A stretch of 57,387 nucleotides of DNA, taken from positions 1-57,387 of the forward strand of contig CAZDIQ010000002.1 in NCBI GenBank assembly GCA_964505525.1. Reading direction: 5' to 3'. The translations under genes and the position numbers were made by a program. Origin of the DNA: an uncultured Acidimicrobiaceae bacterium (GTDB lineage: Bacteria > Actinomycetota > Acidimicrobiia > Spongiisociales > UBA5794). Below the pieces are notes generated by a model. That model did no database searches. It saw only the letters and a program-made list of their open reading frames with translations, and was not told where the DNA came from. Shown here in pieces: positions 24,025 through 57,317 of the stretch; the first letter of the stretch is position 1; every line of letters begins with the position of its first letter.

Positions 24025-25122
24025 ATGAAAATTGTCGAAGTCGAAACCTTCATCGTGCAGGCCGAGCTTCCGCGGTTTGTCACGGATGCCTTCAACGAGA
24101 CGGTCACGTGGGGCCTGCCCGGTGTCATCTTGAGGACCGACGAAGGAGTCGAAGGTGTCGGATACACCAGCACGCTTGCCCACGGCGACCACGCCATCAA
24201 GGATGTGATCGACCGCATATATTCGCCGTTGTTGATGGGTGAGAATCCGCTGTTCAATCAGCGGATCTGGGAGCGGCTGTACTGGTCCAGCGCCCATTGG
24301 GTCGGACGCACCGGCATCACACAGATGGCCTTGGCAGCCGTGGACATTGCAGTTTGGGACATCAAAGCAAAGGCCGCCGGTCTTCCTCTCTGGCAGCTGG
24401 TCGGTGGACACAAGGAAGGCAAGGTCCCGTCATACAACACCGATGGCGGCTGGCTCAACTTCCCGCTCGAACGACTCGTTGAAGAGATGTCGGTCCTTGT
24501 AGATGCAGGATGGCGACGCGTCAAGATGAAAGTCGGAAAGGACGACCCACGCGAAGACATCGCGAGGGTCGGCGCGGTCAGGGAAGCCCTCGGGTCTGAG
24601 ATCGAACTCATGATCGATGTCAACCAGCGGTGGGATGTCAGCCGAGCCATCACGTGGGCACCGCGATTCGAAGAGTTCCAGATTGCGTGGCTCGAGGAAC
24701 CGATTGACCCTGACGATGTCGCTGGACACGCGCGTCTCGCCAGGGCAACGAGGATTCCCATTGCCCTCGGCGAACACGTGTACACGCGGACGATGTTCAG
24801 GGACTACATCGAACAAGGTATCGTCGGCTACGTGCAGGCGGACGTGACCCGCCTTGGTGGTGTCACTGAATGGCTCGCAGTCGCTGAGATCGCTCTCGCA
24901 CACCACATCCCTGTGGTGCCGCACCATGCCGACATGATGCGGGTTCATCAACATCTCGGCACCGGCCACGCTGCGTCCCCGATGATCGAGTGCATTCCGT
25001 GGCTACAACACTTGTTCGTCGAACCGGCTGACATCCGCGACGGAACGTTCCATGTCAGCGATACGCCCGGGGCTTCGACGACGTTCGATCCCGACCAATT
25101 CGCCAAGCATCGCGTCGCATGA
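24025..25122 (+). CDS. Enolase-superfamily enzyme (mandelate racemase type), probable sugar-acid dehydratase
   Basis: VKMKVG (KxK), MIDVN, WLEEP and ALGEH metal ligands, plus HIPVVPHH. RBS GGAGAAAG. Confidence 0.88.
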   Translation: MKIVEVETFIVQAELPRFVTDAFNETVTWGLPGVILRTDEGVEGVGYTSTLAHGDHAIKDVIDRIYSPLLMGENPLFNQRIWERLYWSSAHWVGRTGITQMALAAVDIAVWDIKAKAAGLPLWQLVGGHKEGKVPSYNTDGGWLNFPLERLVEEMSVLVDAGWRRVKMKVGKDDPREDIARVGAVREALGSEIELMIDVNQRWDVSRAITWAPRFEEFQIAWLEEPIDPDDVAGHARLARATRIPIALGEHVYTRTMFRDYIEQGIVGYVQADVTRLGGVTEWLAVAEIALAHHIPVVPHHADMMRVHQHLGTGHAASPMIECIPWLQHLFVEPADIRDGTFHVSDTPGASTTFDPDQFAKHRVA

Positions 25123-35794: not shown

Positions 35795-35966
35795 TGTCAG
35801 CCTTCGGTCAATGTTGCGAACCGGGAAAGCCATCAAGTAGCATTTCACTGGATGGAATACCGTTTCAAAGTTAGTGCTGCCCGTGTCCCCTGTCAATGTG
35901 GACGGGGCGCTGCGTCGTCCACGGCATCGACCTGATGGGCTACCCGCCGATGACCATGCCAGAACC

Positions 35967-37271: not shown

Positions 37272-37339
37272 GGGCATGGGTAGTGTTTGACGCGCGCCCA
37301 TTGAAATGGCAAGCTGCTATGTGAAATGGTGACCAACCG

Positions 37340-38428: not shown

Positions 38429-38470
38429 GGTGATCCTCCGCATCGACGACCGCGACGACACACCGGGTGC

Positions 38471-39766
38471 GTGGTGACTCCTGACACTGTCGATGTGGTC
38501 GTGGTGGGCGGAGGAATCGTTGGGGTTGCCTCTGCTTACTACCTCGCCAAGAGGGGTGTCAGCGTTGCTTTGGTGGAACGTGGCCACATCGGGTGCGAAC
38601 AGTCGAGTCGCAACTGGGGTTTTGTCAGGCAGCAGGGCAGGCACCCGATTGAAATTCCGCTCGTGATGGAGTCCAACAGGATGTGGCGGACACTTGGCGA
38701 GGAACTCAGGGCCGACATTGAATGGGTCCAAGGGGGCAATCTGGCGTTGGCATCGGACGAGGGTCGCTTGGCAGCCTTTGAGGGATGGGCCCGGCTTGCC
38801 GGAACCTTCGGACTCGATACGGTGATCCTCTCACGGTCCGAATTGGCGACTGAGTTCGCCTCGATTCGGGGCGAGTTCGTTGGTGCGATGTTCACACCGA
38901 GCGATGGCCATGCCAATCCGCGCGCCGTTTCACCGGCTTTCGCCGCCGCGGCTCAACGGCTGGGAGCACACATCATCACCGCCCAAGCCGCTGAGCGGAT
39001 CCTTGTTGAGGACTCGACCGTCGTCGGCATCGCTACGGAAGACTCCACGATCCGAGCTCGCTGGGTGATATGTGCGGCAGGCGCGTTGTCGTCGAAGTTG
39101 CTGCGTACTGTCGGTCTGAACCTGCCCCAGCGAGTGGTGAGGGCGACGGTAGCCGAGACCGAGAGCGTGGAGACAGTCACTCGGTCGGCGGTGTGGGCAG
39201 ATGAGGTTTCGATGAGCCAACGACGTGACGGTCGAATCGTCTTCGCGGCAGGTGCCAGTGCCGACTACGACCTGACCCTTGATGTGTTCCGCAATCTGGG
39301 GTTCTTCATGCCGAACTATCGCAAGAATCGTGCTCTGTTTCGTTTCAACATCGGTACAGCGTTCGGCGATGCCGTCCACGAGATGATTCCCTGGTCGGAT
39401 CGTTCGAAGCACCCGTTCAGCTTCAGGCACGCAATCGAGCCATTGCCGAATGTCAAACGCGTGGAACGTGGGGTTGTAGCGCTAGAACGGTTGTTCCCAG
39501 CCATTGCACCCGTGAGGGTTGCACGTCAGTGGGCAGGCAACGTTGATGCCACCCCCGATGCTGTGCCGGTGATTGACGCACTCGACGCACCGCGCGGGCT
39601 CGTGATCGCCACCGGATTCTCGGGTCACGGTTTCGCCCTGGGCCCCGTGGCAGGACGCGTGGTGTCCGAACTCGTCGTCGATGGTGAGGCATCGCTCGAC
39701 ATTTCCGGGTTCCGATTCTCTCGCTTTGTCGAGCGCGACCTGGTGCCGGCACGCTCGGTGTTGTGA
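38471..39766 (+). CDS. FAD-dependent oxidoreductase (DAO family; sarcosine/opine/D-amino-acid oxidase-like)
   Basis: N-terminal VVVVGGGIVGVASAYYLAKRG dinucleotide fold and a DAO-family layout. GTG start. Confidence 0.82.
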   Translation: MVTPDTVDVVVVGGGIVGVASAYYLAKRGVSVALVERGHIGCEQSSRNWGFVRQQGRHPIEIPLVMESNRMWRTLGEELRADIEWVQGGNLALASDEGRLAAFEGWARLAGTFGLDTVILSRSELATEFASIRGEFVGAMFTPSDGHANPRAVSPAFAAAAQRLGAHIITAQAAERILVEDSTVVGIATEDSTIRARWVICAAGALSSKLLRTVGLNLPQRVVRATVAETESVETVTRSAVWADEVSMSQRRDGRIVFAAGASADYDLTLDVFRNLGFFMPNYRKNRALFRFNIGTAFGDAVHEMIPWSDRSKHPFSFRHAIEPLPNVKRVERGVVALERLFPAIAPVRVARQWAGNVDATPDAVPVIDALDAPRGLVIATGFSGHGFALGPVAGRVVSELVVDGEASLDISGFRFSRFVERDLVPARSVL

Positions 39767-42154: not shown

Positions 42155-43764
42155 GTCTGCTTCAACGCCCTTCTGAGATACTTGCCGGTCGGTGTCTTTG
42201 GAAGCTCGTCGAGGATTTCGACCTGGCGCGGGTACTTGTACGCGGCAAGCCGCTCGCGACAGAACGCGATGAGGTCCTCCGGTGTGGAGGTGGCTTGAGG
42301 TCTGAGCACCACGTACGCCTTTACCGTCTCACCCCGATATTCGTCCGGAACTCCCACGACGATTGCTTCTGCCACGTCGGCGTGCTCGTACAGGACGTCC
42401 TCGACTTCGCGGGGCCATATCTTGAACCCAGACGCATTGATCTGGTCCTTTGCCCGATCAATGACGTAGAACCAGCCACCGTCGTCCATCACACCGATAT
42501 CGCCTGTGAACAGTGATCCTCCCGGGATGGCTCGAGACGATTCATCCGGCCTTTCCCAGTATCCGGGAACTACTCCAGGTCCTTCGATGACGATTTCACC
42601 CTCGGTGCCAGGAGGTGCAGCTTCCCCGGTGTCGAGGTCGCGGATCCATGAATTGACAGATGGCATCGGGATACCGACGCTTATGGCGCCACTTGCGTCC
42701 ACGGGCGCCCGGCTGTGGAGCGGCACGCCGTGGCTGGGTGATGTTGTCTCCGTGAGGCCGTACACATTGTGGATGTACCGACCCGTGGCACGCTCCATCC
42801 TCGCAAGCGTTGCGTTGGCAATCGGTGCACCACCCGATGCGAGTTTCTGCAACGTGGGAGCCCTGTCGTGACTCAACCCACCCTTGTCGATCATCGCGGA
42901 ATACACCGTTATGGAACCAACAGTGAATGTCGCGCCGTACTGCTCCGCTCTCATGACCGCATCAACTGGATCGAATCGATGCAGAAGAACCAATTGTGCG
43001 GAGGCGTACCAGCTCACAGCGGTGTGAAGAACTAGGCCCGTGATATGGAACAACGGTGCAACTGCAAGAATCACGTCGTTGTCGTCAAGCTCGTACCAGA
43101 CCGAAGCCATGGCGGCGTTCCAGGCGATGTTCCCATGGGTGTTCATTGCCCCCTTGGGCGTTCCCGTTGTGCCAGATGTGTAGGTGAGCACCGCCACGTC
43201 CGACGGTTTCGGGTCAACCGGTGGCGGTTTGGCGGTGGCTTGTGCCGTGATTGTTTCGGTGTAGCCGAATGTCCGCACTCCCACCAGTGCGTCGACTGCC
43301 TCGCCATTCGTCAGGACGATGGTTGACACCCGAGAACCGTCGAATGCTGTGGGACCGAGATTCCGAATGATGTCTGCATCCCCCACCAGCGCCGTGATAC
43401 CCGAATCGAGCGCGTGGTAACCGATTTCGCGGTCCTTGAACATCGGGTTGAGGGTTACCGCGATTGCTCCCGCTTTCCAAATCGCAAGCAGCGCGACAAT
43501 CCACTCGGGGTCGTTCTGTAGGAGGATGCCAACCCGGTCACCGGTTGTTACCCCGAAGTCCCTCAGCCCACAAGCAAGGGCATCGGAATCCTTGTCGATC
43601 TCGACCCACGAGGTCCCACCGCTCGGCGAGTGAATGTACAGGCCCGTGGAGCCTCGAGCGACGGCTCGTCTCCACAGCTGCAGGGCTGTCTGGGTCCGAT
43701 CGGTCGGCCACGGTGCATCCGGGCGGTAGTGGCGCTGCCACGGGTGAACGGCGTGGGAACTCAT
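42151..43764 (-). CDS. AMP-dependent synthetase/ligase (acyl-CoA synthetase family)
   Basis: AMP-binding motif LTYTSGTTGTPKGAM, then GEIVIEGPGVVPGYW, FTGDIG and the C-terminal PKTPTGK. Confidence 0.88.
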   Translation of the reverse strand: MSSHAVHPWQRHYRPDAPWPTDRTQTALQLWRRAVARGSTGLYIHSPSGGTSWVEIDKDSDALACGLRDFGVTTGDRVGILLQNDPEWIVALLAIWKAGAIAVTLNPMFKDREIGYHALDSGITALVGDADIIRNLGPTAFDGSRVSTIVLTNGEAVDALVGVRTFGYTETITAQATAKPPPVDPKPSDVAVLTYTSGTTGTPKGAMNTHGNIAWNAAMASVWYELDDNDVILAVAPLFHITGLVLHTAVSWYASAQLVLLHRFDPVDAVMRAEQYGATFTVGSITVYSAMIDKGGLSHDRAPTLQKLASGGAPIANATLARMERATGRYIHNVYGLTETTSPSHGVPLHSRAPVDASGAISVGIPMPSVNSWIRDLDTGEAAPPGTEGEIVIEGPGVVPGYWERPDESSRAIPGGSLFTGDIGVMDDGGWFYVIDRAKDQINASGFKIWPREVEDVLYEHADVAEAIVVGVPDEYRGETVKAYVVLRPQATSTPEDLIAFCRERLAAYKYPRQVEILDELPKTPTGKYLRRALKQT

Positions 43765-44537
43765 CCGCGCTGCGCGCTCGGGCCTTTGGGATCCAGAGCG
43801 CGGTATGCATCTCGAAACGCATCGAGAATCATTGCTGAGTCAGCCGAGAACGCGACGATTGTGGCACCGAGGTCGAACCAATGGTTTGCACGTCTTGCGG
43901 TTGGCGCATAGACGCCAGCAGCGACGCCAGCCGCAGCGCACGCAACAAAGACTTCCTCTATCTTGGCCACGACCTCGGGGTGGTCGGGTTGTCCGGGATG
44001 GCCCATCTCGCCCGACAGGTCTACAGGTCCGACGAAGAGAGCGTCGAGTCCTTCGGTCTCAAGAATTCCCGGAAGGTCGTTGATCGCGTTGGTTCCCTCG
44101 AGCATCCCGATGACGGCCGCTCGTGCATCCACGGATGCAAGATCCCCGACTCTCGATGCGTCGTACGAGGCACCGCGAACGTATGGATTGAGTGATCGCG
44201 TCCCTGCGGTGGGGTACCGCGCTGCACTCACGACGGATCGGGCCGCCGAGGCAGAAGAGACATGCGGGACCATGACTCCGTCAAGCCCTGCGTCGAGCAC
44301 TGAACCGATCAGACTCGATCGCGGCTCGGCGATACGCGCAATCGAGTAGATCCCCGACGCTTTGGCAAAGGCCGCCAGATTCGGGAGATCCGACGTGTCG
44401 GCAGGCCCGTGCTCCATGTCGATGATCACCGCGTCGCATCCGGCAAGTGCAAGCATCTCGATGATCTCGACCCGTGGAATCATGACGAACGAAGCAACAA
44501 TGGGTTCGCCGAGGCCGAGTGCCGATCGCAGGTTCAT
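43761..44537 (-). CDS. HpcH/HpaI-family aldolase (2-keto-3-deoxy-acid aldolase)
   Basis: Sequence shows CDAVIIDMEHGP and GVMVPHV, with typical ~257 aa length. ATGA overlap with the downstream ligase. Confidence 0.85.
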   Translation of the reverse strand: MNLRSALGLGEPIVASFVMIPRVEIIEMLALAGCDAVIIDMEHGPADTSDLPNLAAFAKASGIYSIARIAEPRSSLIGSVLDAGLDGVMVPHVSSASAARSVVSAARYPTAGTRSLNPYVRGASYDASRVGDLASVDARAAVIGMLEGTNAINDLPGILETEGLDALFVGPVDLSGEMGHPGQPDHPEVVAKIEEVFVACAAAGVAAGVYAPTARRANHWFDLGATIVAFSADSAMILDAFRDAYRALDPKGPSAQRG

Positions 44538-44857: not shown

Positions 44858-45706
44858 ATGTCCCCACAATCAAAAGGTCTTCAGTCGAGCAACGACATGG
44901 ATACGTCGATTCTCGTCGGCTTGGGTCGCGATCTGTACGACGCGGAGCAAACGCATTCTGTCCTGAAACCACTCACCGATCTCTACCCCGACATGACGCT
45001 GGAGGATGCTTACGCCATCCAACAGGAGTATGCACGATTGCGGATGGACGCGGGTGCGACTCTGGTCGGCCACAAGATTGGCGCCACAAGCCAAGCGATC
45101 CAGAACCTCTTCTCGATTGACACTCCGGACTTCGGTCACCTCTTCGACGACATGCAGAGGTCGGAATTTGAGGCGATCAGTCTCGACGACCTGATTCAGC
45201 CACTCGTCGAGCCGGAGATCGCCTTCGTCCTCGGTGAGGACATAACAGGGCCGGGCATCGAATGGGGCGACATCATCGACGCCGCGGCGGGCGTAGTGCC
45301 GTGCCTTGAGATCATCGATAGCCGTATCACCGAGTGGAAGATTCGACTCGCCGACACCGTCGCCGACAATGGATCGAGTTCCCTGTTCGTTGTCGGGTCA
45401 ACGATGGTTTCTGCCTCTGAAACCGACCTTGGATCCGAGGCCGTGTCCTTCGAACGATCAGGAGAAGTTGTGGGTAGTGGAACCGGAGCTGACGTCTTCG
45501 GCCATCCTGCGAAAGCAGCTGCATGGCTTGTCAACGCGCTGGGTGGGTTCGGCATCACCGTGGAGAAAGGCGCTTTGGTGCTTTCTGGATCCATCACCAC
45601 CGCGGTGGCCGCCAGACCAGGCGACCGGTTCAGGGCAACTTTCTCCTCGATAGGTACTGTTGAGTGTCGGTTCTCAGATCGACCTGATTCCAAGGAGTTG
45701 ACGTAG
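44858..45706 (+). CDS. 2-keto-4-pentenoate hydratase / 2-oxohepta-3-ene-1,7-dioate hydratase-family enzyme (MhpD/HpcG-like)
   Basis: Sequence shows AYAIQQEY...GHKIGATS and EPEIAF, with an FAH-fold hydratase pattern. RBS GAGGAA. Confidence 0.82.
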   Translation: MSPQSKGLQSSNDMDTSILVGLGRDLYDAEQTHSVLKPLTDLYPDMTLEDAYAIQQEYARLRMDAGATLVGHKIGATSQAIQNLFSIDTPDFGHLFDDMQRSEFEAISLDDLIQPLVEPEIAFVLGEDITGPGIEWGDIIDAAAGVVPCLEIIDSRITEWKIRLADTVADNGSSSLFVVGSTMVSASETDLGSEAVSFERSGEVVGSGTGADVFGHPAKAAAWLVNALGGFGITVEKGALVLSGSITTAVAARPGDRFRATFSSIGTVECRFSDRPDSKELT

Positions 45707-45708
45707 AT

Positions 45709-46176
45709 ATGCCAATGACACATGAGGCGATGGAGCAAGCAATCCGGGGCTACTTTGATGCGTGCAACAGGGGAGACGCCGACGCGATAGCCGCGTTCTT
45801 CACGGATGACGCCGTCCACTATTTTCCACCAGGCATGTACGAGGGCCCGTTCAGAACCGCCACAACAATCGGGGATCGATGGCGGCAGGCAGTCGAGGGT
45901 CTGGGGTCGATGTGGACCATCGACCAACTGATCACCGACGCCGAAACCGGTCGTGCGGTCATTGAGTGGACGCACTTCAAGACAGCAAAAGGGACCGTGC
46001 TCCGCGGTGATGAGTGGTACATCTTCGATCCTGACTCCGGTTTGATCGCGGAGATTCGGGCCTACTACGCGTCCCCACAGGCCGAGAACCTCCAGACACT
46101 CGAGCTCGAAGGGTTCGACTACGCGGGGAGGGGATACACAACCGATCCTCCGTTTACCCGCGAAATCGCCGAATGA
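45709..46176 (+). CDS. SnoaL-like / NTF2-fold protein
   Basis: 155 aa carrying YFDACNRGDADAIAAFFTDDAVHYFP, typical of SnoaL-like polyketide cyclase/NTF2 domains. Confidence 0.7.
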   Translation: MPMTHEAMEQAIRGYFDACNRGDADAIAAFFTDDAVHYFPPGMYEGPFRTATTIGDRWRQAVEGLGSMWTIDQLITDAETGRAVIEWTHFKTAKGTVLRGDEWYIFDPDSGLIAEIRAYYASPQAENLQTLELEGFDYAGRGYTTDPPFTREIAE

Positions 46177-47417
46177 CGCATCCGCTAGGGCTTGTGGACC
46201 AGTCCTCGTGGTTTGCCGGTGGTGGCGGGACGCACAGCCACAGAGCCTCGTCGTGGGATCGGACCGGGGCAAACCGAGACTTCATCAATCTCGACGCTGG
46301 CGACACCGCGGTTCTGCTCGAGGCGGACGGACCTGGGTGTGTCACGCACACATACCTCGCGATGGTCCTTCCCGACATCGCCGACTACAGAAACGCAATT
46401 CTGAGGTGCTATTGGGACGGGTCTGATCGACCGTCGGTGGAGGTTCCGCTGGGCGACTTCTTCGGAGTGACAAACGGGCGCGTGCGCGAGTATCAGAGTC
46501 AGATGACCGCTGTCAATGGCGGCCTTGGTGCCTCGCATGGTCTCAATGCGTACTTTCCCATGCCTTTCTCGTCCGGTGGGCGGATCACGCTCGAAAACCG
46601 TGGTAGCGAAAGACTCGGTGGGGCTCTTGGCAACCTTTGGTACCACATCGACTACGAGTTGTACGACAATCCGATCCCTGAGGACACACATCGGTTCCAT
46701 GCGTCGTATGCCCAGGAGGTTCCGACCACTGTCGTGGGTGCAGAACCGAATGTCACGCTTCATGACGCCGAAAACGGCGACGGAACCGAGAACTATGTCG
46801 CCCTCCAAACCACGGGGGCCGGTCGGATGGTCGGTCTTGTTCTTGGAATCGAGAATCTCCAAGGCACGAGCTGGTACGGCGAAGGTGATGACATGGTCTT
46901 CATCGACGGCGAGTCTTGGCCACCAGCAATCCACGGGACCGGGACCGAGGAGATTTTTGGTGGCGGAGCCTGCCCGAGTTGGGAATATGCCGGACCATAT
47001 ACAGGGTTCCACCTGGTCGAGTCTCCAGAGTATGAAGGCCTCATCGGGATGTACCGGTGGTATGTCCACGACCCGATTCACTTTGCGTCATCACTCAAAT
47101 GGACAATCGAGCACGGCCATGCGAACAACTTTGCGAACAACTACTCATCGGTTGCGTATTGGTATCAGACGCCACGGGGGGTGCTGCCACCGCTTCCCGC
47201 CCCCTCCGAGATGCTCCCGCCACTCGGGGACGGCTACGAGGAGGCGAAGACGTATCTCTTCGCGACAACCGAACGGCTTCGTCGGGCCGTTGGAGAGGGC
47301 GGCCAGCTCATCGACTTTCTTCGAGCTTGTCGGGCCGGAGAACCGTTCTACCGCGGTGACTGGGCGGCCACCATCGAGGCGCTCGATCGCTACCGGTCGG
47401 AGACGAGGTTGGGGTAG
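46173..47417 (+). CDS. DUF2961 / glycoside hydrolase family 172 protein (copy 1 of 3)
   Basis: Sequence shows SSWDRTGANRD, GPGCVTHTY, CYWDGSDRPSVEVPLGDFFG, NAYFPMPF and WYGEGDDMVFIDGESWPPAIHGTGTEEIFGG. No signal peptide. ATGA overlap with the upstream gene. Confidence 0.85.
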   Translation: MTHPLGLVDQSSWFAGGGGTHSHRASSWDRTGANRDFINLDAGDTAVLLEADGPGCVTHTYLAMVLPDIADYRNAILRCYWDGSDRPSVEVPLGDFFGVTNGRVREYQSQMTAVNGGLGASHGLNAYFPMPFSSGGRITLENRGSERLGGALGNLWYHIDYELYDNPIPEDTHRFHASYAQEVPTTVVGAEPNVTLHDAENGDGTENYVALQTTGAGRMVGLVLGIENLQGTSWYGEGDDMVFIDGESWPPAIHGTGTEEIFGGGACPSWEYAGPYTGFHLVESPEYEGLIGMYRWYVHDPIHFASSLKWTIEHGHANNFANNYSSVAYWYQTPRGVLPPLPAPSEMLPPLGDGYEEAKTYLFATTERLRRAVGEGGQLIDFLRACRAGEPFYRGDWAATIEALDRYRSETRLG

Positions 47418-49027
47418 TGGCTTCGGCGATTCCGGTCCTTGTTGGCGGCGTCTGGCGTGAATCGTCAGGTTCAGCTACGTTCGAGTCCGTCAACCCTGCC
47501 ACTGGCGAGGCGCTCGTTGCTTATCCGATCTCAGAATGGGATGAGATCGACGCGGCGCTCAGCGCAGGCCACTCGGCGTACGAGGAACTTCGCGACATTG
47601 ATCCAAAGTCCGTCGCGTCGATGCTCGCGGGATTCGCCGACCGGATCGAGCGCAACACTGCGGAACTGGCCGCCGTCGCCGCGAAAGAGACCGGGTTGCC
47701 CGCAGCGCCCCGCCTGTCGGATGTCGAGATTCCACGAACGGTGAATCAGCTGCGCATGGCTGGCGCAGCGGCGCAAGCCCGCGACTGGGTGGAACCGATT
47801 CTTTCGCCCGGAGCACGTCTCGCGTCGTGGTTGGCACCAACCCCCGGGGTTGTTCCTGTGTTCGGCCCGAACAACTTCCCCTTTGCATTCAACGGAGTCG
47901 GCGGTGGCGACTTTGCGGCTGCCATCGCTACGGGACATCCCGTCCTCGCCAAGGCGAATCCCGGTCACCCCGAGACCACGAGGTTGCTCGCATCAGAGGC
48001 CTTGCAAGCCGCTGATGCCGCTGGTCTCCCAGAAGCGACCATCCAAATGGTGTACCGCACCTCCCACGATGACGGTGCACGCATCGTTGCCGATCCGCGC
48101 GTCGCCGCCACAGCGTACACGGGGTCGAGGTCCGCGGGCCTTGCTCTCAAGCGGAGTGCGGACGCTTCCGGGAAGCCGATCTACCTCGAGATGTCGAGCG
48201 TGAACCCCGTCGTCGTGTTACCGGGAGTTCTGTCCGAAACGCCGGATGTCGTGGCTTCGACCCTCGTGGCGAGCGTGCTGTTGGGGGCAGGGCAATTCTG
48301 TACAAGTCCAGGAATCGTCTTTGTCACGGAGTCCGCCGGTTTCGACCAGTTCATGGAGACCCTTGCAGCCGGTTTCCGACATGCACCGGTTGCCACCCTG
48401 TTGACTGAAGGCGTGGCAACCGGCTTGTCGGCAGCCCGCGCCCAGTGGGTATCCGCGGGTGCGAAAGTGGTCGCGAGCGGACAAATCGCAGACGCCGACG
48501 GTCCGACGTTCTCGTACCCTGCAACCCTGCTTTGGACGTCGGCCGCGGACTTCTTGTTGCGATCCGAGGAGCTACAGACGGAGGCATTCGGTTCGATGAT
48601 GCTGGTAGTGAGGGCCCCAAGTGTCGCCGAGTTGGTCCGGTGCGTCGACCGCCTCGAAGGCAACCTGACTGGGACGGTATTCGTCTCGGTCTCGGGGTCT
48701 GACGACGGGATATATCCCGAGGTGGCAGGGCGGCTTCGGGAGAAGGTCGGGCGACTGGTCAATAACAAGGCCCCGACCGGCGTTGCTGTTGACCAAGCGA
48801 TGAACCATGGCGGACCGTATCCGTCGACGGGGCACGCAGGATTCACCGCGGTTGGGGTCCCGACGAGTTTTCGTCGTTTCGCAAACCTGCAGAGTTTTGA
48901 CAACGTGGCCGACAGTCGTCTCCCCCCGGAATTGCAGGCGGCAAACCCGTTGGGCTTGATGCGAAGGGTCGACGATGAGTGGACTCGTAGTTCGATCGAG
49001 TGGGCGCGTCCGAGCGAGCCCGACTGA
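47417..49027 (+). CDS. Aldehyde dehydrogenase, alpha-ketoglutaric semialdehyde (2,5-dioxovalerate) dehydrogenase-like
   Basis: ALDH fold with length (~536 aa) and N-terminus (VGGVWRESSGSATFESVNPATGE) typical of the KGSADH-type group. It carries a catalytic-Cys region GAGQFCTSPG and FGPNNFPFAF. GTG start overlaps the upstream TAG by 1 nt. Confidence 0.8.
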   Translation: MASAIPVLVGGVWRESSGSATFESVNPATGEALVAYPISEWDEIDAALSAGHSAYEELRDIDPKSVASMLAGFADRIERNTAELAAVAAKETGLPAAPRLSDVEIPRTVNQLRMAGAAAQARDWVEPILSPGARLASWLAPTPGVVPVFGPNNFPFAFNGVGGGDFAAAIATGHPVLAKANPGHPETTRLLASEALQAADAAGLPEATIQMVYRTSHDDGARIVADPRVAATAYTGSRSAGLALKRSADASGKPIYLEMSSVNPVVVLPGVLSETPDVVASTLVASVLLGAGQFCTSPGIVFVTESAGFDQFMETLAAGFRHAPVATLLTEGVATGLSAARAQWVSAGAKVVASGQIADADGPTFSYPATLLWTSAADFLLRSEELQTEAFGSMMLVVRAPSVAELVRCVDRLEGNLTGTVFVSVSGSDDGIYPEVAGRLREKVGRLVNNKAPTGVAVDQAMNHGGPYPSTGHAGFTAVGVPTSFRRFANLQSFDNVADSRLPPELQAANPLGLMRRVDDEWTRSSIEWARPSEPD

Positions 49028-49044
49028 CAGGAGGGGTGAGACCC

Positions 49045-50259
49045 ATGCAAGGATTTGAGCACTTAACCGGTCCGGTGTCCGGTGTGTCGAGGCGTGCGTC
49101 CTCTTGGGACAGGACCGGAGCCAACGCAGATTGGATCGAGGTTGACCCGGGGGAGACTGTGACCCTCATGGAGCACCAGGGTCCCGGAGCAATCACGCAT
49201 CTGTATGCAGCCATGATGTATCCCGAACTGGCAGACTATCGGGACGCGATCATCAGATGCTATTGGGACGGTGCTGATGTGCCTTCGGTGGAAGTACCCC
49301 TCGGAGACTTCTTCACGGTCGTACACGGCCGCGTACGAGAAATCAAGAGCGCCATGGTCACCATCAATCCCGGGTTTGGCGTTTCTCATGGAATGAGTGC
49401 GTACTTTCGCATGCCGTTCGCACAGGGAGCGGTGATCACGCTCGAGAATCGCGGTCCGTCGCGCCTTGGTGGGCGCATCGGGAATCTGTGGTACCACGTG
49501 GACTACGACGTTCTCGACGAGGCTGCTCACGCCGAACCCATGCGATTCCACGCCCAATACCGTCAGGAACGCCCTGCGATTCCGGTTGGTCCTGAGCCCG
49601 GGAAGCAGCTGCATGGAGCGTCCAATCTCACCGGGGAAGAGAACTACGTCGTCGTGGATACCCAAGGCGAGGGTCGAATGGTCGGACTGGTCCTGGAGGT
49701 CGACAATCACGTTGGCGGATGGTGGGGTGAGGGCGACGATATGGTGTTCGTCGACGGCCATTCATGGCCACCCGCGATCCATGGAACAGGCACGGAGGAA
49801 ATCTTCTCAGGCGGTGCCTCGCCGGGATGGGAGTATGCAGGTCCATACACGGGGACCCATCTCATCGAATCGCCCGACTACGCAGGGTTGACGGGAATGT
49901 ATCGGTGGTACCTCCATGACCCAATCAGTTTCCACAACTCTCTTCTGTGGACCATCGAGCACGGGCACGCCAACAATTTCGCGAACGACTACTCATCGGT
50001 TGGGTATTGGTATCAGACGCCAGCCGTGTCGGTCGTGGGGACGCTTCCTGCCCGGCAGGACATGTTGCCTCGTCTCGGAGAGGATCACGACACAGCCCGC
50101 GCCCTCCTTGAAGATACGGTCGTGCAGGCCCGCGAGTTGGGTGGCGAGGCATATGTCACGGCCGCGCGATCAGTCGCACCATTCTATGAGGGTAGGTTTG
50201 CCGAAGCGATCGACTCCATGAATGCCGTCAGGGCCGAGCTCGGTCTGGAGTCCGACTAG
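49045..50259 (+). CDS. DUF2961 / glycoside hydrolase family 172 protein (copy 2 of 3)
   Basis: Close paralog of 46173..47417 with the same motif set, for example WWGEGDDMVFVDGHSWPPAIHGTGTEEIFSGG. The start is set at ATG 49045 behind RBS AGGAGGGG. Confidence 0.85.
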   Translation: MQGFEHLTGPVSGVSRRASSWDRTGANADWIEVDPGETVTLMEHQGPGAITHLYAAMMYPELADYRDAIIRCYWDGADVPSVEVPLGDFFTVVHGRVREIKSAMVTINPGFGVSHGMSAYFRMPFAQGAVITLENRGPSRLGGRIGNLWYHVDYDVLDEAAHAEPMRFHAQYRQERPAIPVGPEPGKQLHGASNLTGEENYVVVDTQGEGRMVGLVLEVDNHVGGWWGEGDDMVFVDGHSWPPAIHGTGTEEIFSGGASPGWEYAGPYTGTHLIESPDYAGLTGMYRWYLHDPISFHNSLLWTIEHGHANNFANDYSSVGYWYQTPAVSVVGTLPARQDMLPRLGEDHDTARALLEDTVVQARELGGEAYVTAARSVAPFYEGRFAEAIDSMNAVRAELGLESD

Positions 50260-51233
50260 AGCGGCGTGGGTGCCTGTGGGTCGATGAGATTCTCGGTGGC
50301 AAGCTCGGCCCACAGATCCGAAGGAATGTCGACCGACATCAACGCGGCATTGGTGCGGATTTCGTCGGGGGATCGGGCACCTGTGATTACCGTTGCCACA
50401 GCTGGGTGTGCGAGAGGGAACTGCACCGCTGCCGCGATGGGGTCGACTCCGTGGCGATGGCACACTTCGCGAATCCTGACAGCCTTCGAGACCACGGCGT
50501 CAGGGGCAGCCTCATAGTTGTACTTGGCATCTCCGTCGGGGTCGACCATCACGCCACTGTTGAAGACGCCGCCGGCAATGATCGAGAACTGTCGCTCAAT
50601 CGCCAACGGGAGCAGCTCGACGAGAGCTGTTTGTTCGAGGAGCGTGTATCGACCAGCCAGTAGCACGCAGTCGAATTCTGCTCGCGAGGCGAGGTATACA
50701 AGGGGTTCGACCCAATTCATTCCGGCACCGATCGCCCCGACGATCCCTTCACTCCGCATGTCATGGAGTGCCCTGTACGTGCCATCAAGCGCTTCGTCGA
50801 GTGCGTCGTCGGGGTCGTGGATCAGCGCGACATCGACGCGATCGAGACCGAGCCGCTCAAGGCTCTCTTCAAGGGATCGGCGGGCTCCGTCGTACGAAAA
50901 GTCGAATTCGGCGGTGTGCGAATGGTCTCCTTCGAAGAGTCCGGGGTCCGACTCCGTCTCGACCAGCAATCGCCCCATCTTCGTCGATAACGTGTATCCA
51001 GTGCGTGGGTGTGCTGCGAGAACCGAGCCGAGCCACCGTTCTGATTGGCCATATCCATAGAACGGAGCGGTGTCGAAGTAGCGCAATCCGAGGTCCCATG
51101 CCGCCTGCACCGTAGCAAGTCCGGTCTCCTCGTCGATTGCTGCCGGCCATCCCCCGAGTGGGGCGGTACCCAACCCGAGCCTTGTAACCGGGACCGTGCT
51201 TGCCCCGAGGGTGGTTCTTTCGGTCGGATCCAT
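50256..51233 (-). CDS. Aldo/keto reductase (D-threo-aldose/L-fucose 1-dehydrogenase-like subgroup)
   Basis: Sequence shows LGLGTAPLGG and YFDTAPFYGYGQSERWLG. The start is moved to ATG 51233 (MDPTERT...) behind RBS AGGAGG. Confidence 0.8.
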   Translation of the reverse strand: MDPTERTTLGASTVPVTRLGLGTAPLGGWPAAIDEETGLATVQAAWDLGLRYFDTAPFYGYGQSERWLGSVLAAHPRTGYTLSTKMGRLLVETESDPGLFEGDHSHTAEFDFSYDGARRSLEESLERLGLDRVDVALIHDPDDALDEALDGTYRALHDMRSEGIVGAIGAGMNWVEPLVYLASRAEFDCVLLAGRYTLLEQTALVELLPLAIERQFSIIAGGVFNSGVMVDPDGDAKYNYEAAPDAVVSKAVRIREVCHRHGVDPIAAAVQFPLAHPAVATVITGARSPDEIRTNAALMSVDIPSDLWAELATENLIDPQAPTPL

Positions 51234-51246
51234 TGGCGGCCTCCTG

Positions 51247-52185
51247 TCAGACGATTGCGATTGGTCGAAGAGCGAATCCAGCAGTGGCTCCTCGGACGGG
51301 AGGAACAAGTGCGATATAGGTGAATTCGTAGCGCCCATCCCGCGCAAGGTCCTCGAGATTGTGGAGTTCTCCCATGTGGACGCCTTGATCGACCAACAAG
51401 TACTCGTGGACGGGCGAGGGTGATGGTGCTCCGTCGATCGGAGGGATTACCTCGAGCGTCGACGTGTCACCGCCGATCAACATGGCGCCACACTCTTCGA
51501 CGAGCCATCGCGCAGCGCCAAGAGTTATCCCTGCAGAATCGGGACCAGCAATTGCCGCATGGTCGTGCCCGGCAACACCCCAGTGACGCATCGCCCCGGA
51601 TCTCACCATGACGACTGACCCGGGTGCTATTTCGATTCCCTGGTGGTCCAGAACTGCCCGGAGCTCGTCGGCCGTGATGGCATAGGACGGTTGAAGTTCG
51701 TCGATCCCCAGATATCTGGGTATGTCGAGCAGAACTCCGCGAGCGATGATTGGTGGGATCGACGCGGCGCTCGCCTTCGTTGCACCGAAGTCCGACGACC
51801 ACTCGGCTGCGGTGAACCCGTTGTACCAGTGATTGTCCGCACCCTTGGTAGCGTGGCACAAACCGTCCAGCTGGGTACCTGCGTGATCGGACAACGTGAT
51901 CATGGAAGTGAAGAAGCTCATCCCTTCGTCCGGCTCCCCGAAGTCCCCACTTCGTTTGATACCTTCTGCGGTCCGGAACGTCAGCACCTCGGTACCGACG
52001 TGACCAGGCCATAGAAACGACCCGCGATCAAGGGCGACGCCGAGGTCATACACAGCGCCATGCTTCGGAGCACTGAGAGCCGCCAGAGTGGTTTCGGCAG
52101 TCATCGCGTTCAGGGCACCGATTTCATCTTCATCACCCCAAATCCAACCCCAGCCTTCTCCGCGTTGCCATCCCGGTTTACCCAT
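51247..52185 (-). CDS. Putative cyclase-family protein (kynurenine formamidase fold, PF04199-like)
   Basis: Sequence shows YDLGVAL, LSDHAGTQLDGLCH and RGVLLDIP. The start is moved to ATG 52185 (MGKPGW...) behind RBS GGAGGA. Confidence 0.7.
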   Translation of the reverse strand: MGKPGWQRGEGWGWIWGDEDEIGALNAMTAETTLAALSAPKHGAVYDLGVALDRGSFLWPGHVGTEVLTFRTAEGIKRSGDFGEPDEGMSFFTSMITLSDHAGTQLDGLCHATKGADNHWYNGFTAAEWSSDFGATKASAASIPPIIARGVLLDIPRYLGIDELQPSYAITADELRAVLDHQGIEIAPGSVVMVRSGAMRHWGVAGHDHAAIAGPDSAGITLGAARWLVEECGAMLIGGDTSTLEVIPPIDGAPSPSPVHEYLLVDQGVHMGELHNLEDLARDGRYEFTYIALVPPVRGATAGFALRPIAIV

Positions 52186-52302
52186 GGTCTCCTCCACTTG
52201 CGAACTCCGCTTGGATCTGATCCGCACTCGCGATCAGTGTAGGCTGATGATTCCTCATGACGGAAAGGTGTTTCCCAAGATGAACGATAGGGTGGTGGTC
52301 AG

Positions 52303-53373
52303 ATGACAGGCCTCGATTCGCTTCCTCGACTGCTCAACGTCGAATCGCGCTCGATCAGCGCCGAGAATCCGAGCGGCGAGCGCGGTGGCGGTGGCAAAGC
52401 TACCGAAGGAACCGGCGCCATCGCGTCGCGGGATCTCGGGCGGGGATGGAAGGTGTCGCCGAGCATCGTCATCCCACCAGGCGACACCGCCGTTCTGGCG
52501 GACATCAACGGCTGCGGGATGATCCGTCACATCTGGATCACATCCGCCGCTGATCGATGGCGCGATTTCATCCTTCGAATGTCATGGGATGGGAGTCCGG
52601 AGCCGGCCGTCGAAGTACCCCTGGGTGACTTCTTCTGCAACGGTTGGAAGTCCTTCAGTCAGGTCGACTCGGTTCCGATTGCTGCGAATCCCAACGGTGG
52701 CTTCAACTCGTACTGGCCCATGCCATTTCGGTCTGGTGCTGTCATCACGATCGAGAATCGGGCTGAGGTCGAAGGCAAGTGTTACTTCCAGATCGACTAC
52801 ACACTCGGGGATGAGCAGGAGGATTCGTTCGGATACTTTCATGCCCAGTGGCGGCGGAGCAATCCTCTTCCATACATGGCGACACATGAGCTCCTCGAGC
52901 TTCCCGCGGGCTCGGGTCACGGTCACTATGTGGGGACGTACATTGCCTGGGGTGTCAACAATTCCGGGTGGTGGGGGGAGGGCGAAGTCAAGATGTATCT
53001 CGACGGTGACGATGAGTTTCCCACGATCTGCGGCACCGGCACAGAAGACTACTTCGGCGGAGCTTGGAACTTTGATCTCCCCGGCAAAGGCTACACACCG
53101 TTCACGACGCCGTATCTCGGACTCAATCAAGTCACTCCGACGGACGGCCTGTATGCGAGTCAACAGCGGTTCGGCATGTACAGATGGCACATTCCCGACC
53201 CGGTCGTGTTCCGCGACTCACTTCGCGTCGACATCCAGGCGCTCGGGTGGAGATCGGGCCATCGATACCTGCCGCTGCAGGATGACATTGCTTCAACCGT
53301 CTTCTTCTACCTCGATTCAGCATCGGCAAGACGTCCGGAGCTTGCATCGTCCGACCATCTGGAGGTGATCTGA
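52303..53373 (+). CDS. DUF2961 / glycoside hydrolase family 172 protein (copy 3 of 3, divergent and shorter)
   Basis: Sequence shows GMIRHIWIT, WDGSPEPAVEVPLGDFFCNGW, NSYWPMPF and WWGEGEVKMYLDGDDEFPTICGTGTEDYFGGAWNF. Confidence 0.85.
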   Translation: MTGLDSLPRLLNVESRSISAENPSGERGGGGKATEGTGAIASRDLGRGWKVSPSIVIPPGDTAVLADINGCGMIRHIWITSAADRWRDFILRMSWDGSPEPAVEVPLGDFFCNGWKSFSQVDSVPIAANPNGGFNSYWPMPFRSGAVITIENRAEVEGKCYFQIDYTLGDEQEDSFGYFHAQWRRSNPLPYMATHELLELPAGSGHGHYVGTYIAWGVNNSGWWGEGEVKMYLDGDDEFPTICGTGTEDYFGGAWNFDLPGKGYTPFTTPYLGLNQVTPTDGLYASQQRFGMYRWHIPDPVVFRDSLRVDIQALGWRSGHRYLPLQDDIASTVFFYLDSASARRPELASSDHLEVI

Positions 53374-53374: not shown

Positions 53375-54541
53375 ATGGCCACGATCGTTGGTGTGAGGAC
53401 GGTGCCGTACAACTACACCATGACTCGCAGGATTGGTGATGTTCATCTCCCCGACGGCACGGATTCGGGCTCAGACATGGCCGTATTTGTCGATACCGAC
53501 GAAGGAATCTCGGGTGTGGCAATCGGGTACGGTCAAGGCTCAAGCGACGTCCAACGGTTCGCAAAACTCGTGATCGGCGAAGACCCGCGAGCGACTCGGG
53601 CACTGTGGGAACGGATGGTGGCGCTCAGCTTCAAGATGGGACTCGCCGGGGGTACGAAGATTGCAGTCTCAGCGATTGACGCTGCCTTGTGGGATCTCAA
53701 GGCGAAGCTGAATGGTGTGCCACTGTGGAAGGAGGTCGGCGCCGTTGAAGGATCCGCGGCAGGGTATGCAAGCGGTCTCGACACGCCATTGTCCGATTCA
53801 GAGCTTGACTCGTTCTACCGGAGGATGGCAGCCAGGGGATTCAATGCAGGGAAACTGAAGGTAGGCGCTGATCAGGACGCAGACCTTCGTCGGTTGGGCA
53901 TCATGAAGGAAGCCCTTGCTTCGAGTGGTAAGCACCCGGTTTTGATGGTCGATTCCAACGAGTACTGGACCCCCAAGCAGTCGATCGCACGAATTCGTGA
54001 GATGGAACGGGAGTTCGACCTTCTCTGGGCAGAAGAGCCAGCAGGCAGGCGGGATGTGGTAGGACTTCGCACCGTTTCTCGAGCAATAACCGCCGCAGTG
54101 GCAACCGGAGAGAACCTCGACAGCAGCGCGGATTTCGCAGCCCTGATACGTGCCGAAGCAGTCGACGTCATCCAAATCGGGGCCTTGACATCGGGGATCA
54201 CGGGAGCACTGCAGGTGGCCGATATGGCATACGCCAACGGCATTCCGGTCGCCATGATGAATTGTCCCGGGCGCCACATGGCCCATGTCGCCGCCGCGCT
54301 CCCTCATCATCTCATGATGGAGATTTTGGACTGCGGACGTGACCAAGCCTTCTCGCACGAAGCTGAGCTCGTGGACGGTCGTGTGCAATTGGGGAATGCA
54401 CCGGGATCCGGGATCGTGATTCGTGCCGAAGTCCTTGAGGGAACCGATGTCGTCGAACCGTCCCCTTCGTCGCTGAGGGCGATCTATCGCAAGTCGCCCG
54501 GTTCGTGGATCAACGAATCACGGTCGCCCGGACGCGAGTGA
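53375..54541 (+). CDS. Enolase-superfamily enzyme (mandelate racemase type), probable sugar-acid dehydratase
   Basis: GKLKVG (KxK), MVDSN, WAEEP and ATGEN metal ligands. RBS GGAGGTGA. It starts 1 nt after the GH172 stop. Confidence 0.85.
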   Translation: MATIVGVRTVPYNYTMTRRIGDVHLPDGTDSGSDMAVFVDTDEGISGVAIGYGQGSSDVQRFAKLVIGEDPRATRALWERMVALSFKMGLAGGTKIAVSAIDAALWDLKAKLNGVPLWKEVGAVEGSAAGYASGLDTPLSDSELDSFYRRMAARGFNAGKLKVGADQDADLRRLGIMKEALASSGKHPVLMVDSNEYWTPKQSIARIREMEREFDLLWAEEPAGRRDVVGLRTVSRAITAAVATGENLDSSADFAALIRAEAVDVIQIGALTSGITGALQVADMAYANGIPVAMMNCPGRHMAHVAAALPHHLMMEILDCGRDQAFSHEAELVDGRVQLGNAPGSGIVIRAEVLEGTDVVEPSPSSLRAIYRKSPGSWINESRSPGRE

Positions 54542-57196: not shown

Positions 57197-57277
57197 AAGG
57201 CATGCCTTTTCGAAGTGCGCAAAGGCTACTCGAATCGGAGCCACTTGGCACTCGGTTCGACCCGTCCCGGCGTGGTT

Positions 57278-57317
57278 GGCAGGCAGCAGGCACACTACGT
57301 CCTGCCCACTGCCTGCC
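57278..57317 (-). terminator. Terminator-like hairpin between the truncated upstream gene and paralog copy 4
   Basis: GGCAGGCAG-CAGG...CCTG-CCCA-CTGCCTGCC forms 9-bp and 4-bp stems. On the minus strand it begins 12 nt after the putative stop at 57329. Confidence 0.4.

Follow-up and report, generated by a model that had tools for sequence, protein, structure and literature searches.

Which sugar do the GH172 enzymes encoded in this stretch of DNA release, and by which route does the cell consume it? The stretch (57,387 nucleotides of contig CAZDIQ010000002.1 from an uncultured Acidimicrobiaceae bacterium; hereafter, the window) carries three genes of glycoside hydrolase family GH172 (DUF2961) within positions 46173–53373. 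d-Arabinofuranose (d-Araf) is a building block of the arabinan in mycobacterial arabinogalactan and lipoarabinomannan. The enzymes that cut d-Araf linkages were found only in 2021–2023, and chemical probes for GH172 are just appearing. The published GH172 enzymes are αFFase1, ExoMA1, DgGH172a–c, NocGH172, and MycGH172, and the catabolism of the released d-arabinose has been proposed to proceed by isomerase/kinase routes. A survey of DUF2961 gene neighborhoods makes no mention of dehydrogenase or aldolase partners. A sequence-only reading of the window had suggested that its GH172 genes supply a pentose of the d-arabinose type, rather than fructose, to an oxidative pathway. This suggestion is supported by the resemblance of one enzyme (GH172_C) to ExoMA1, by the absence of fructoside-specific features from the other two (GH172_A and GH172_B), and by the conservation of the oxidative genes. 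We propose that, in this uncultured actinobacterium, the segment is probably the central part of an island for the cytoplasmic salvage of d-arabinofuranosides by an oxidative route.

Three GH172 proteins of two types

Genes and domains were called from an open reading frame (ORF) listing, Pfam scans, and phmmer searches over all ORFs of the 57-kb window. GH172_A, B, and C scored 234, 237, and 302 bits against PF11175 (cut-off 27), and phmmer found no fourth copy among the window ORFs. Their boundaries match independent calls on three metagenome contigs encoding identical proteins, and GH172_1st, GH172_dom, and GH172_2nd matches are precomputed for the same genes. GH172_A overlaps the aldehyde dehydrogenase (ALDH) gene by 1 nt, and a 17-nt gap separates the latter from GH172_B. 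A gap of 1 nt lies between GH172_C and the enolase-superfamily gene (ENO3) on its 3′ side. The N termini of the three proteins have no hydrophobic segment (maximum 12-residue Kyte–Doolittle mean, 0.4–1.0), whereas the secreted solute-binding protein (SBP), GH114 enzyme, and β-helix-like protein of the window reach 2.9–3.7. The glutamates of the GEG and GTGTE motifs in all three proteins align with E270 and E291 of αFFase1, and both are invariant across 107 aligned GH172 sequences. In αFFase1, these residues are the acid/base and the nucleophile, respectively (PMC8605356; also a 2026 preprint). The sequence-only reading had thus described the trio correctly as to number, hallmark motifs, lack of a secretion signal, and arrangement, with GH172_C as the divergent member (34–35% identity to A or B). 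Its description of A and B as close paralogs bracketing the ALDH gene holds for the bracketing, but "close" was generous for two proteins of 59.8% identity.

Against Protein Data Bank (PDB) entry 8IC8, GH172_C scored 528 bits (E 1.6e-157), with 64.6% of the residues identical along 353 of its 356 amino acids, and it groups with the ExoMA1 clade in a neighbor-joining (NJ) tree. This entry is ExoMA1, an intracellular dodecameric exo-α-d-arabinofuranosidase from Microbacterium arabinogalactanolyticum (PMC10509167). In ExoMA1, Asn253 replaces Gly299 of αFFase1 and blocks the C1 hydroxymethyl group of fructofuranose (Fruf), which makes it the specificity determinant. The equivalent Asn is kept in GH172_C (AWNFD) and is found in 7 of the 8 C-type sequences of the alignment. 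Because of the high identity and the retained Asn253, GH172_C is assigned to the known ExoMA1 type and is probably a further exo-α-d-arabinofuranosidase.

GH172_A and GH172_B are of a different type. The best solved relatives of GH172_A are αFFase1 (7V1V, 213 bits), BACUNI_00161 (4KQ7, 210 bits), and Dg79/DgGH172c (8AH3, 198 bits), and both A and B are 37–40% identical to αFFase1 and BACUNI_00161. An AlphaFold2 (AF2) model of GH172_A (pLDDT 80, pTM 0.86; loop 263–277 poorly defined) predicts a double jelly-roll fold. It superimposes on 4KQ7, 8AH3, 7V1V, and 8IC8 with TM scores of about 0.6–0.8, the first three at 0.66–0.80, and the next matches are double jelly-roll capsid proteins of viruses. 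The model also has a C-terminal helical extension, as in the hexameric members αFFase1, Dg79, and BACUNI_00161. A and B share the catalytic glutamate pair and W267 with these enzymes, but their −1 subsite is remodeled. The 107 aligned sequences comprise 53 with Glu at position 292 (termed EE), 51 other genomic sequences, and three solved references. Among the EE sequences, Tyr187′ is replaced by Trp (52/53), Asp292 by Glu (53/53), and Trp298 by Ala (49/53), whereas W267 is invariant. The solved references (αFFase1, ExoMA1, and the uncharacterized BACUNI_00161) have Tyr, Asp, and Trp at positions 187′, 292, and 298, and the 51 non-EE genomic sequences are overwhelmingly Tyr, Asp, and aromatic. 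At the position of Gly299, A has Cys and B has Ser (Cys 38, Ser 11, and Gly 3 in the clade), and the loop bearing Lys147 of the +1 subsite is deleted in 53 of 53 EE sequences. Only about 1% of the activity remained in the D292A/N mutants of αFFase1. Since the Tyr→Trp/Asp→Glu/Trp→Ala triad is fixed, A and B cannot simply be taken as copies of Dg79 or ExoMA1. They may favor a different linkage, d-Araf bearing a substituent, or a furanoside of l-fuco or l-galacto configuration, and the enzymes encoded downstream would fit any of these.

The EE clade is monophyletic in the NJ tree and contains no characterized member. GH172_B lies on a sub-branch with enzymes of Kribbella and locus L009 (compared loci are designated by L numbers), and GH172_A groups on another with the enzymes of Jiangella, L012, L008, and L011. 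Each paralog thus has its own orthologs, which makes the duplication an old one. The EE motif together with GGGA(C/S)P is present in 120 of the 120 best database homologs of GH172_A, and GTGHEE variants exist as well. By name, the best homolog of GH172_A is a protein from a metagenome-assembled genome (MAG) of an uncultured Actinomycetes bacterium (66%). The clade extends over Actinomycetota, Chloroflexota, Binatia, Acidobacteriota, Hydrogenedentota, Planctomycetota, Gammaproteobacteria, and some archaeal MAGs. A tblastn search of plasmids with GH172_A found no EE-clade member, only D-type GH172 (Asp292) of at most 37% identity.

Putative oxidative genes linked to the EE clade

The coupling of GH172 genes with oxidative genes is evolutionarily conserved and is not a chance juxtaposition. 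Contigs whose GH172 is 72–74% identical to GH172_A have exactly the gene order of the window: DUF6259–CoA ligase–HpcH aldolase; (IclR) FAH–SnoaL–GH172–ALDH–GH172; AKR (aldo-keto reductase)–cyclase; and GH172(C)–MR_MLE. Around farther EE-clade genes (58–63% identity to GH172_A), the same families occur in other orders. In Kribbella jiaozuonensis and K. pittospori, one tight operon encodes two ABC permeases, an SBP, AKR, the EE-type GH172, HpcH, MR_MLE, FAH, SnoaL, and the cyclase-family protein, and its products are 46–72% identical to their window counterparts. The module set of Jiangella asiatica is divergent from the EE gene, with a C-type GH172 gene 8 kb away, and the same gene set is present in five metagenome contigs and one gammaproteobacterial MAG. 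Of 39 nonredundant EE loci, 9 had at least four of the six module families within 10 kb, as against 0 of 47 other GH172 loci (Fisher p = 4.6e-4), and the module is therefore specific to the EE clade, though not universal in it. The total of 39 is an undercount, as the EE-motif regular expression missed GTGHEE variants. Other EE contexts contain NamZ, a zinc-dependent alcohol dehydrogenase, a GFO oxidoreductase, or a PASTA kinase. In a Binatia MAG (L014, 8045–11203), an EE-clade GH172 gene lies two genes 3′ of a gene for a NamZ-type exo-β-N-acetylmuramidase, which hints at a cell-wall-salvage setting for EE members without the oxidative module.

Six partners of the A/B clade are deeply conserved: AKR, the cyclase-family protein, an MR_MLE protein of the ENO2 type (24025–25122), HpcH, an MhpD-like FAH, and SnoaL. 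Lineage-specific additions are ALDH, which was found in the window's lineage only, and the dehydratase adjoining GH172_C (ENO3), with orthologs in this lineage and L018 only. The sequence-only reading had rested its case on tight coupling to precisely these two genes; the oxidative coupling stands, whereas its deeper dehydratase partner is of the ENO2 type.

Here, we propose a catabolic route based on these gene sets. Oligosaccharides would be imported by ABC transporters, most plausibly from the cell-wall d-arabinan of Mycobacteriales or from other d-Araf glycans. Retaining exo-furanosidases would then trim them to monosaccharides, with GH172_C acting as the ExoMA1-type enzyme, and the rebuilt pocket of A and B probably accepting a modified furanoside of d-arabino configuration or a linkage of another kind. 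The free aldose would be oxidized at C1 by AKR, the lactone opened by the cyclase-family hydrolase, and the aldonate dehydrated to a 2-keto-3-deoxy acid by ENO2 and/or ENO3. At one outlet, HpcH aldolase would split this acid into pyruvate and glycolaldehyde. At the other, FAH2 (the MhpD-like FAH of the window), perhaps with SnoaL, would dehydrate it to 2,5-dioxopentanoate (α-ketoglutarate semialdehyde; KGSA), which ALDH would convert to 2-oxoglutarate. Of the two outlets, HpcH is present throughout the module, and the pair of FAH2 and ALDH is that of this lineage. A fructose product is disfavored because a ketose cannot enter a pathway that begins with an aldose 1-dehydrogenase.

The C2–C4 stereochemistry is common to l-galactose, l-fucose, and d-arabinose. 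All five best PDB matches of AKR are l-galactose dehydrogenases (92–100 bits), and AKR is 56.5% identical to its Kribbella operon counterpart. A bacterial AKR that oxidizes d-arabinose, l-fucose, and l-galactose is induced by d-arabinose (PMC6336799). The cyclase-family protein is 59% identical to the Kribbella protein, and its only good PDB match is the uncharacterized 5IBZ. Its gene adjoins that of AKR in the window and L011 and shares the AKR operon in L013, L025, L036, and L018. The protein may be the lactonase, judging from this AKR-coupled position, which is usual for lactonases. The Kribbella MR_MLE protein is 72.3% identical to ENO2 and 29.5% to ENO3; thus ENO2, rather than the ENO3 beside GH172_C, is its ortholog. 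The best PDB match of ENO2 is 3TJ4/4H19 (357 bits), and it scores 183 bits, below the cut-off, with the NCBIfam model of archaeal arabinonate dehydratase. The entry 4H19 is presumably a d-ribonohydroxamate complex, for which no literature was found, and it is not used as evidence here. The best PDB matches of ENO3 are 2OZ8 and the TalrD/GalrD 2PP0 (121 bits); its orthologs lie 3′ of a C-type GH172 gene in L004 and L006 and between the cyclase and AKR genes in L018. The three enolase-superfamily proteins of the window score 91–210 bits with the archaeal AraD model, for which the cut-off is 650. Among named proteins, ENO2 and ENO3 come closest to l-talarate/galactarate, l-fuconate, and archaeal arabinonate dehydratases, with every score far under the equivalog cut-off. 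The KxK motifs of ENO3 and of the Kribbella ortholog of ENO2 are consistent with the mandelate racemase subgroup. The gene neighborhood of the best plasmid match of ENO2 (Bosea) was uninformative.

HpcH scores 115–140 bits with the NCBIfam models of HpaI, GarL, and 2-keto-3-deoxy-l-rhamnonate aldolase, all below cut-off. FAH2 is 50% identical to the Kribbella protein, and its best PDB matches are HpcG (2EB4) and MhpD (170–176 bits). On chemical grounds, FAH2 would give 2,5-dioxopentanoate if it ran as a dehydratase with a 4,5-dihydroxy-2-oxo acid as substrate. The SnoaL protein is 66% identical to its Kribbella counterpart and is encoded beside FAH2 or GH172 in related loci. ALDH best matches 1EYY (227 bits) and 3V4C (200 bits) and belongs to a branch of approximately 510–530 amino acids, which we take to include KGSADH-II/III of Azospirillum. 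Its closest annotated relative (51.3% identity) is encoded in a Weimberg-type FAH–ALDH–YjhG/YagF pentonate dehydratase operon on a plasmid of Deinococcus peraridilitoris. The label "KGSADH-like" previously given to this enzyme is plausible in view of that relative, although no curated model reaches its cut-off.

The AMP-binding CoA-ligase gene between HpcH and DUF6259 (window 42151–43764) is intact in the window and L006 and is reduced to fragments of 53 and 108 amino acids in L004 (4316–4803) and L005 (3552–4039). As it is broken in the latter two, it is probably dispensable for the module.

Table 1. Coordinates of the GH172 genes, the putative pathway genes, and associated genes in the window
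Feature	Position	Strand	Description and proposed role	Support
GH172_A	46173..47417	+	414 aa; predicted cytoplasmic; EE clade (GTGTEE, GGGACP, LWYH); C-terminal helical extension	Pfam DUF2961, E 2.3e-69
GH172_B	49045..50259	+	404 aa; predicted cytoplasmic; EE-clade paralog (GTGTEE, GGASP)	Pfam DUF2961, E 2.2e-70
GH172_C	52303..53373	+	356 aa; predicted cytoplasmic; putative ExoMA1-type exo-α-d-arabinofuranosidase	Pfam DUF2961, E 3.5e-90
ALDH	47417..49027	+	536 aa; V. harveyi-ALDH type; proposed 2,5-dioxopentanoate (α-KGSA) and/or glycolaldehyde dehydrogenase	Pfam Aldedh, E 1.4e-48
AKR	50256..51233	−	325 aa; candidate aldose 1-dehydrogenase (NAD(P)+-dependent) of d-arabinose/l-fucose/l-galactose type	Pfam Aldo_ket_red
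Cyclase-family (PF04199) metal hydrolase	51247..52185	−	312 aa; cotranscribed with AKR; proposed aldonolactonase	Pfam Cyclase, E 2.7e-21
ENO3	53375..54541	+	388 aa; enolase superfamily (mandelate racemase subgroup); proposed acid-sugar dehydratase of this lineage	Pfam MR_MLE_C/N
ENO2	24025..25122	+	365 aa; enolase superfamily; ortholog of the conserved EE-operon dehydratase	
HpcH/HpaI-family class II aldolase	43761..44537	−	258 aa; transcribed divergently from the FAH2 operon; candidate 2-keto-3-deoxy-acid aldolase (pyruvate + aldehyde)	Pfam HpcH_HpaI, E 1.9e-31
FAH2	44858..45706	+	282 aa; MhpD/HpcG-type hydratase; leads FAH2–SnoaL–A–ALDH–B operon; proposed 2-keto-3-deoxy-acid dehydratase/hydratase	TIGR03220, 279 bits (cut-off 409)
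SnoaL_2 (NTF2-like) protein	45709..46176	+	155 aa; overlaps GH172_A by 4 nt; possibly tautomerase/isomerase	Pfam SnoaL_2, E 4.4e-12
Six-gene operon	19532–25122	+	MR_MLE (ENO1)–FAH (HpcE/FAHD1-type)–SGL lactonase–SIS–PfkB–MR_MLE (ENO2)	
FAH1	20650–21513	+	FAH of the six-gene operon	
SGL lactonase	21510–22397	+	Classical SGL lactonase	
SIS	22464–23069	+	Arabinose-5-phosphate-isomerase-like; overlaps PfkB; proposed phosphorylative d-arabinose route	
PfkB	23066–23953	+	Ribokinase-like; overlaps SIS; same proposed route	
DUF6259_1	11492–13870	+	Cytoplasmic	Pfam DUF6259
DUF6259_2	27118–29466	+	Cytoplasmic	Pfam DUF6259
DUF6259_3	39860–42154	−	Cytoplasmic	Pfam DUF6259
DUF6259_4	54542–57196/57295	−	Cytoplasmic; 884–917 aa; convergent with ENO3	Pfam DUF6259

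A putative isomerase–kinase pair, DUF6259, and other genes of the window

The six-gene operon, which lies 20 kb away from the GH172 trio, is a second module for sugar acids. Its FAH1 showed only generic HpcE/FAHD1-type matches in the PDB and no KdaD, and no useful similarity to the Deinococcus FAH. The SIS protein is short and has no CBS domains; it scores 162 bits with the KpsF/GutQ family (cut-off 204), and the PfkB kinase scores 243 bits with ribokinase (cut-off 300). In ten other loci (L057, L058, L066, L067, L072, L077, L082, L087, L088, and L089), a homologous SIS–kinase pair is encoded beside GH172, usually immediately 5′ of it, the hosts being Paenibacillus, Bacillus, Virgibacillus, Lederbergia, Lentibacillus, and Kribbella (L077 was confirmed by Pfam). 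This pairing suggests a conversion of d-arabinose via d-arabinose 5-phosphate to d-ribulose 5-phosphate, unlike the isomerase-then-kinase scheme drawn for Microbacterium. The window probably also has this phosphorylative route, which would run parallel to oxidation and lead to the pentose phosphate pathway.

The four DUF6259 paralogs are mutually 29–45% identical, and their best homologs are Acidimicrobiia MAG proteins (69% identity). Sequence searches of the PDB with DUF6259 gave no match, and only the fold search was informative. An AF2 model of the third paralog (pLDDT 90.8) consists of a β-sandwich, a (β/α)8 barrel, and a second β-sandwich, the architecture of GH36, GH129, GH31, and GH101, with only 9–14% identity. 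In locus L077 of Bacillus yapensis, the order is GH183 (DUF4185)–SIS–GH172–SBP/permeases–DUF6259 (14663–16888)–GH183–GH172 (ExoMA1-like), and DUF6259 is paired with GH172 in five further Bacillota loci. GH183 enzymes are endo-d-arabinanases (PMC10509167). DUF6259 may be a new glycosidase family associated with d-arabinan loci, and a literature search found no paper on it. An Opp-type ABC transporter and an SBP5 lipoprotein are encoded beside DUF6259_2, which fits oligosaccharide uptake and subsequent hydrolysis by exo-enzymes in the cytoplasm, the model put forward for Microbacterium (PMC10509167). A pathway of the 3,6-anhydro-galactose type had been considered from ALDH, enolase-superfamily "cycloisomerase" matches, and the GH129-like fold of DUF6259. 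It was dropped, as the likeness is at the fold or family level only (9–14%) and the loci are terrestrial d-arabinan loci.

In L004 (16238–17206) and L006 (16242–17137), the contigs most closely related to the window, a fourth, very divergent GH172 (62–65 bits to GH172_C) occupies the slot convergent with ENO3. In the window, this slot belongs to a DUF6259 gene (54542–57295), and the two families appear to be interchangeable there.

Several genes lie farther from these systems. A secreted 615-residue protein (2943–4790) has no Pfam match and looks by eye like a β-helix with FG-GAP-like "FGNPGDxP" repeats; it is followed by a secreted enzyme of GH114, the endo-α-1,4-polygalactosaminidase family (4977–6626). 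The two may together degrade an exopolysaccharide, with no connection to the GH172 genes. Between DUF6259_1 and a gene for an old yellow enzyme (OYE)/FadH-type flavoenzyme, a 1088-residue ORF on the minus strand (13876–17142) has no Pfam or NCBIfam match and no obvious signal peptide. Genes for a P450, an ADP-ribosylglycohydrolase, a Rieske oxygenase α-subunit, and a DAO-type FAD oxidoreductase are found at 34565–39766, between the ABC transporter and DUF6259_3, and a DAO gene precedes the cluster in L004 too.

Competing explanations and known systems

Several observations weigh against d-Araf salvage by oxidation. No oxidative module accompanies 30 of the 39 EE loci, whose contexts are varied. 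The Asp→Glu change and the aromatic swap in A and B may mean that their sugar is other than d-Araf, and AKR, the dehydratase, and the aldolase suit l-fucose or l-galactose equally well. No documented lactonase of the cyclase family was found in the literature. FAH2 has no detectable similarity to the FAH of the Deinococcus ALDH operon, which resembles 2-keto-3-deoxypentonate (KDP) dehydratase, and KdaD is not among its PDB matches; neither FAH1 nor FAH2 can therefore be tied to a known KDP dehydratase. No pathway enzyme obtained an equivalog-level name from NCBIfam, where the KGSADH, arabinonate dehydratase, and ribokinase models stayed below cut-off. In the window, which is only part of the genome, phmmer with the two GH183 proteins of L077 as queries found no GH183, and the ORFs scanned with Pfam gave no GH116 match.

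Some of these points can be accommodated by dividing the substrates. GH172_C would be the d-arabinofuranosidase, and A and B would cut l-fucofuranosides, l-galactofuranosides, or C5-modified d-Araf, with the module burning that sugar by a route of the l-fuconate/l-galactonate type to pyruvate and lactaldehyde or glyceraldehyde. Three correlated changes in the −1 subsite fixed throughout a clade, the likeness of AKR to l-galactose dehydrogenases, and the universality of HpcH, but not ALDH, as outlet all agree with this idea, as does the Kribbella operon, which has its own transporter and neither GH183 nor DUF6259 nearby. We nevertheless regard it as rather unlikely: such glycosides are rare in nature, EE enzymes stand beside an ExoMA1-type enzyme in both the window and Jiangella, and every GH172 activity so far is on α-d-Araf or α-d-Fruf. 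The published AKR and dehydratases accept d-arabino and l-fuco/l-galacto substrates alike (PMC6336799), which favors the divided scheme. A nonsugar function, in which FAH2, HpcH, and ALDH form a lower meta-cleavage pathway (HpcG/HpcH/semialdehyde dehydrogenase-like) for an aromatic or other nonsugar compound and the adjacency of GH172 is incidental, seems very unlikely. The best matches of FAH2 (HpcG, MhpD, and NahK), the best models of the aldolase (HpaI and GarL), and the Rieske oxygenase, P450, and CoA-ligase genes upstream in the window are in its favor. However, in Kribbella, Jiangella, and L009, a single operon combines FAH, SnoaL, and HpcH with the genes for AKR, GH172, MR_MLE, and a sugar ABC transporter; no ring-cleavage enzyme is among the neighbors listed in these loci, and overlaps of 1–4 nt tie FAH2, SnoaL, GH172_A, and ALDH into one transcription unit.

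The remaining alternatives concern the activity of A and B themselves. It is highly improbable that EE-clade proteins are nonglycosidases in vivo, serving for binding or as a scaffold, or catalyzing transglycosylation or anhydro-sugar interconversion on a furanose. A residue essential in the −1 subsite of αFFase1 is changed, αFFase1 itself performs a reversible intramolecular transfer, and the loop after the nucleophile is modeled with low confidence, but none of the 53 sequences, which come from many phyla, deviates at W267 or at either catalytic glutamate, the substitutions are fixed, not random, and the place of the genes in sugar-uptake operons fits a hydrolase. That A and B are α-d-fructofuranosidases or difructose dianhydride I (DFA I) synthase/hydrolases is scarcely credible, even though αFFase1, a joint-best solved relative, is the top sequence and fold match of GH172_A and shares the IEHGHAN and SWD(R/Q)xGxN motifs. 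The identity is limited to 37–40%, Asp292 is replaced, and both Gly299, which gives room to the C1 hydroxymethyl of Fruf, and the Lys147 loop, which are needed for DFA I and inulobiose, are absent. Cys304 of BACUNI_00161 and Asn253 of ExoMA1 have both been judged to clash with Fruf, and the GH172 enzymes of D. gadei, including Dg79, are inactive on DFA I. In addition, no GH32 or fructokinase partner was seen, and the conserved neighbors are predicted to oxidize aldoses. Oxidative salvage of d-arabinofuranosides thus remains our preferred reading.

A more far-reaching proposal is possible, although the balance is somewhat against it. The EE clade would be a functionally new GH172 subfamily, with a Trp187′/Glu292/Ala298 pocket for a substrate new to the family, and its genes would form with AKR, a cyclase-family lactonase, MR_MLE, MhpD-like FAH, SnoaL, and HpcH a self-contained, undescribed operon for uptake and oxidation. 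DUF6259 would be an unclassified glycosidase of d-arabinan fragments, for example, removing β-d-Araf caps in the place of GH116. The literature search found no report of the EE clade or of GH172 linked to an oxidative pathway. The locus adds to GH172 a large cross-phylum subfamily with an altered sugar pocket. It would provide the first genomic evidence that GH172 products enter nonphosphorylative oxidation, as opposed to the isomerase/kinase routes proposed so far. Its putative pathway has two members without precedent (the cyclase-family and SnoaL proteins), and DUF6259 is a lead on a further glycosidase of d-arabinan loci. Since cultured Kribbella and Jiangella carry the compact operon, these predictions are directly testable, and additional exo-enzymes would help to dissect the glycans of the mycobacterial cell wall.

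Comparison with known systems shows which parts of the locus are familiar. GH172_C resembles ExoMA1 over its full length, in size, in its catalytic pair, in its Fruf-blocking Asn, and in having no signal peptide, and would likewise trim imported d-arabino-oligosaccharides inside the cell. The differences are traits of the locus, not of the enzyme: GH172_C is in an operon with an enolase-superfamily dehydratase, amid putative aldose-oxidation genes and DUF6259, and no GH183 or GH116 was found around it in the window. A and B are predicted to have the fold of the hexameric enzymes but form a separate clade with its own pocket. The d-arabinan polysaccharide utilization loci (PULs), such as PUL42 of D. 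gadei and those of Bacillota (e.g., L077 of Bacillus yapensis), are similar in having several GH172 subtypes per locus and ABC or Sus transport, and the Bacillota loci share the SIS–kinase pair and DUF6259 with the window. Unlike the window, these loci carry GH183 endo-enzymes, D-type GH172 (Asp292/Trp298), and isomerase or kinase routes, and they have no oxidative module. The nonphosphorylative d-arabinose pathways (AraDH/AraD/KdaD/DopDH of Sulfolobus; bacterial AKR, UxaA-type dehydratase, and KDP dehydratase, PMC6336799) follow the same proposed logic of aldose 1-dehydrogenase, lactonase, and aldonate dehydratase, and then an aldolase or a second dehydratase with α-KGSA dehydrogenase, and they offer precedents for AKR-type d-arabinose dehydrogenase and enolase-type dehydratases. 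In the window, by contrast, the lactonase candidate is a cyclase-family protein, and the candidate for the second dehydratase is of the MhpD type, not the KdaD/XylX type. SnoaL is a fixed member of the module, and a glycoside hydrolase and a transporter are hard-wired to it, an arrangement undescribed for GH172.

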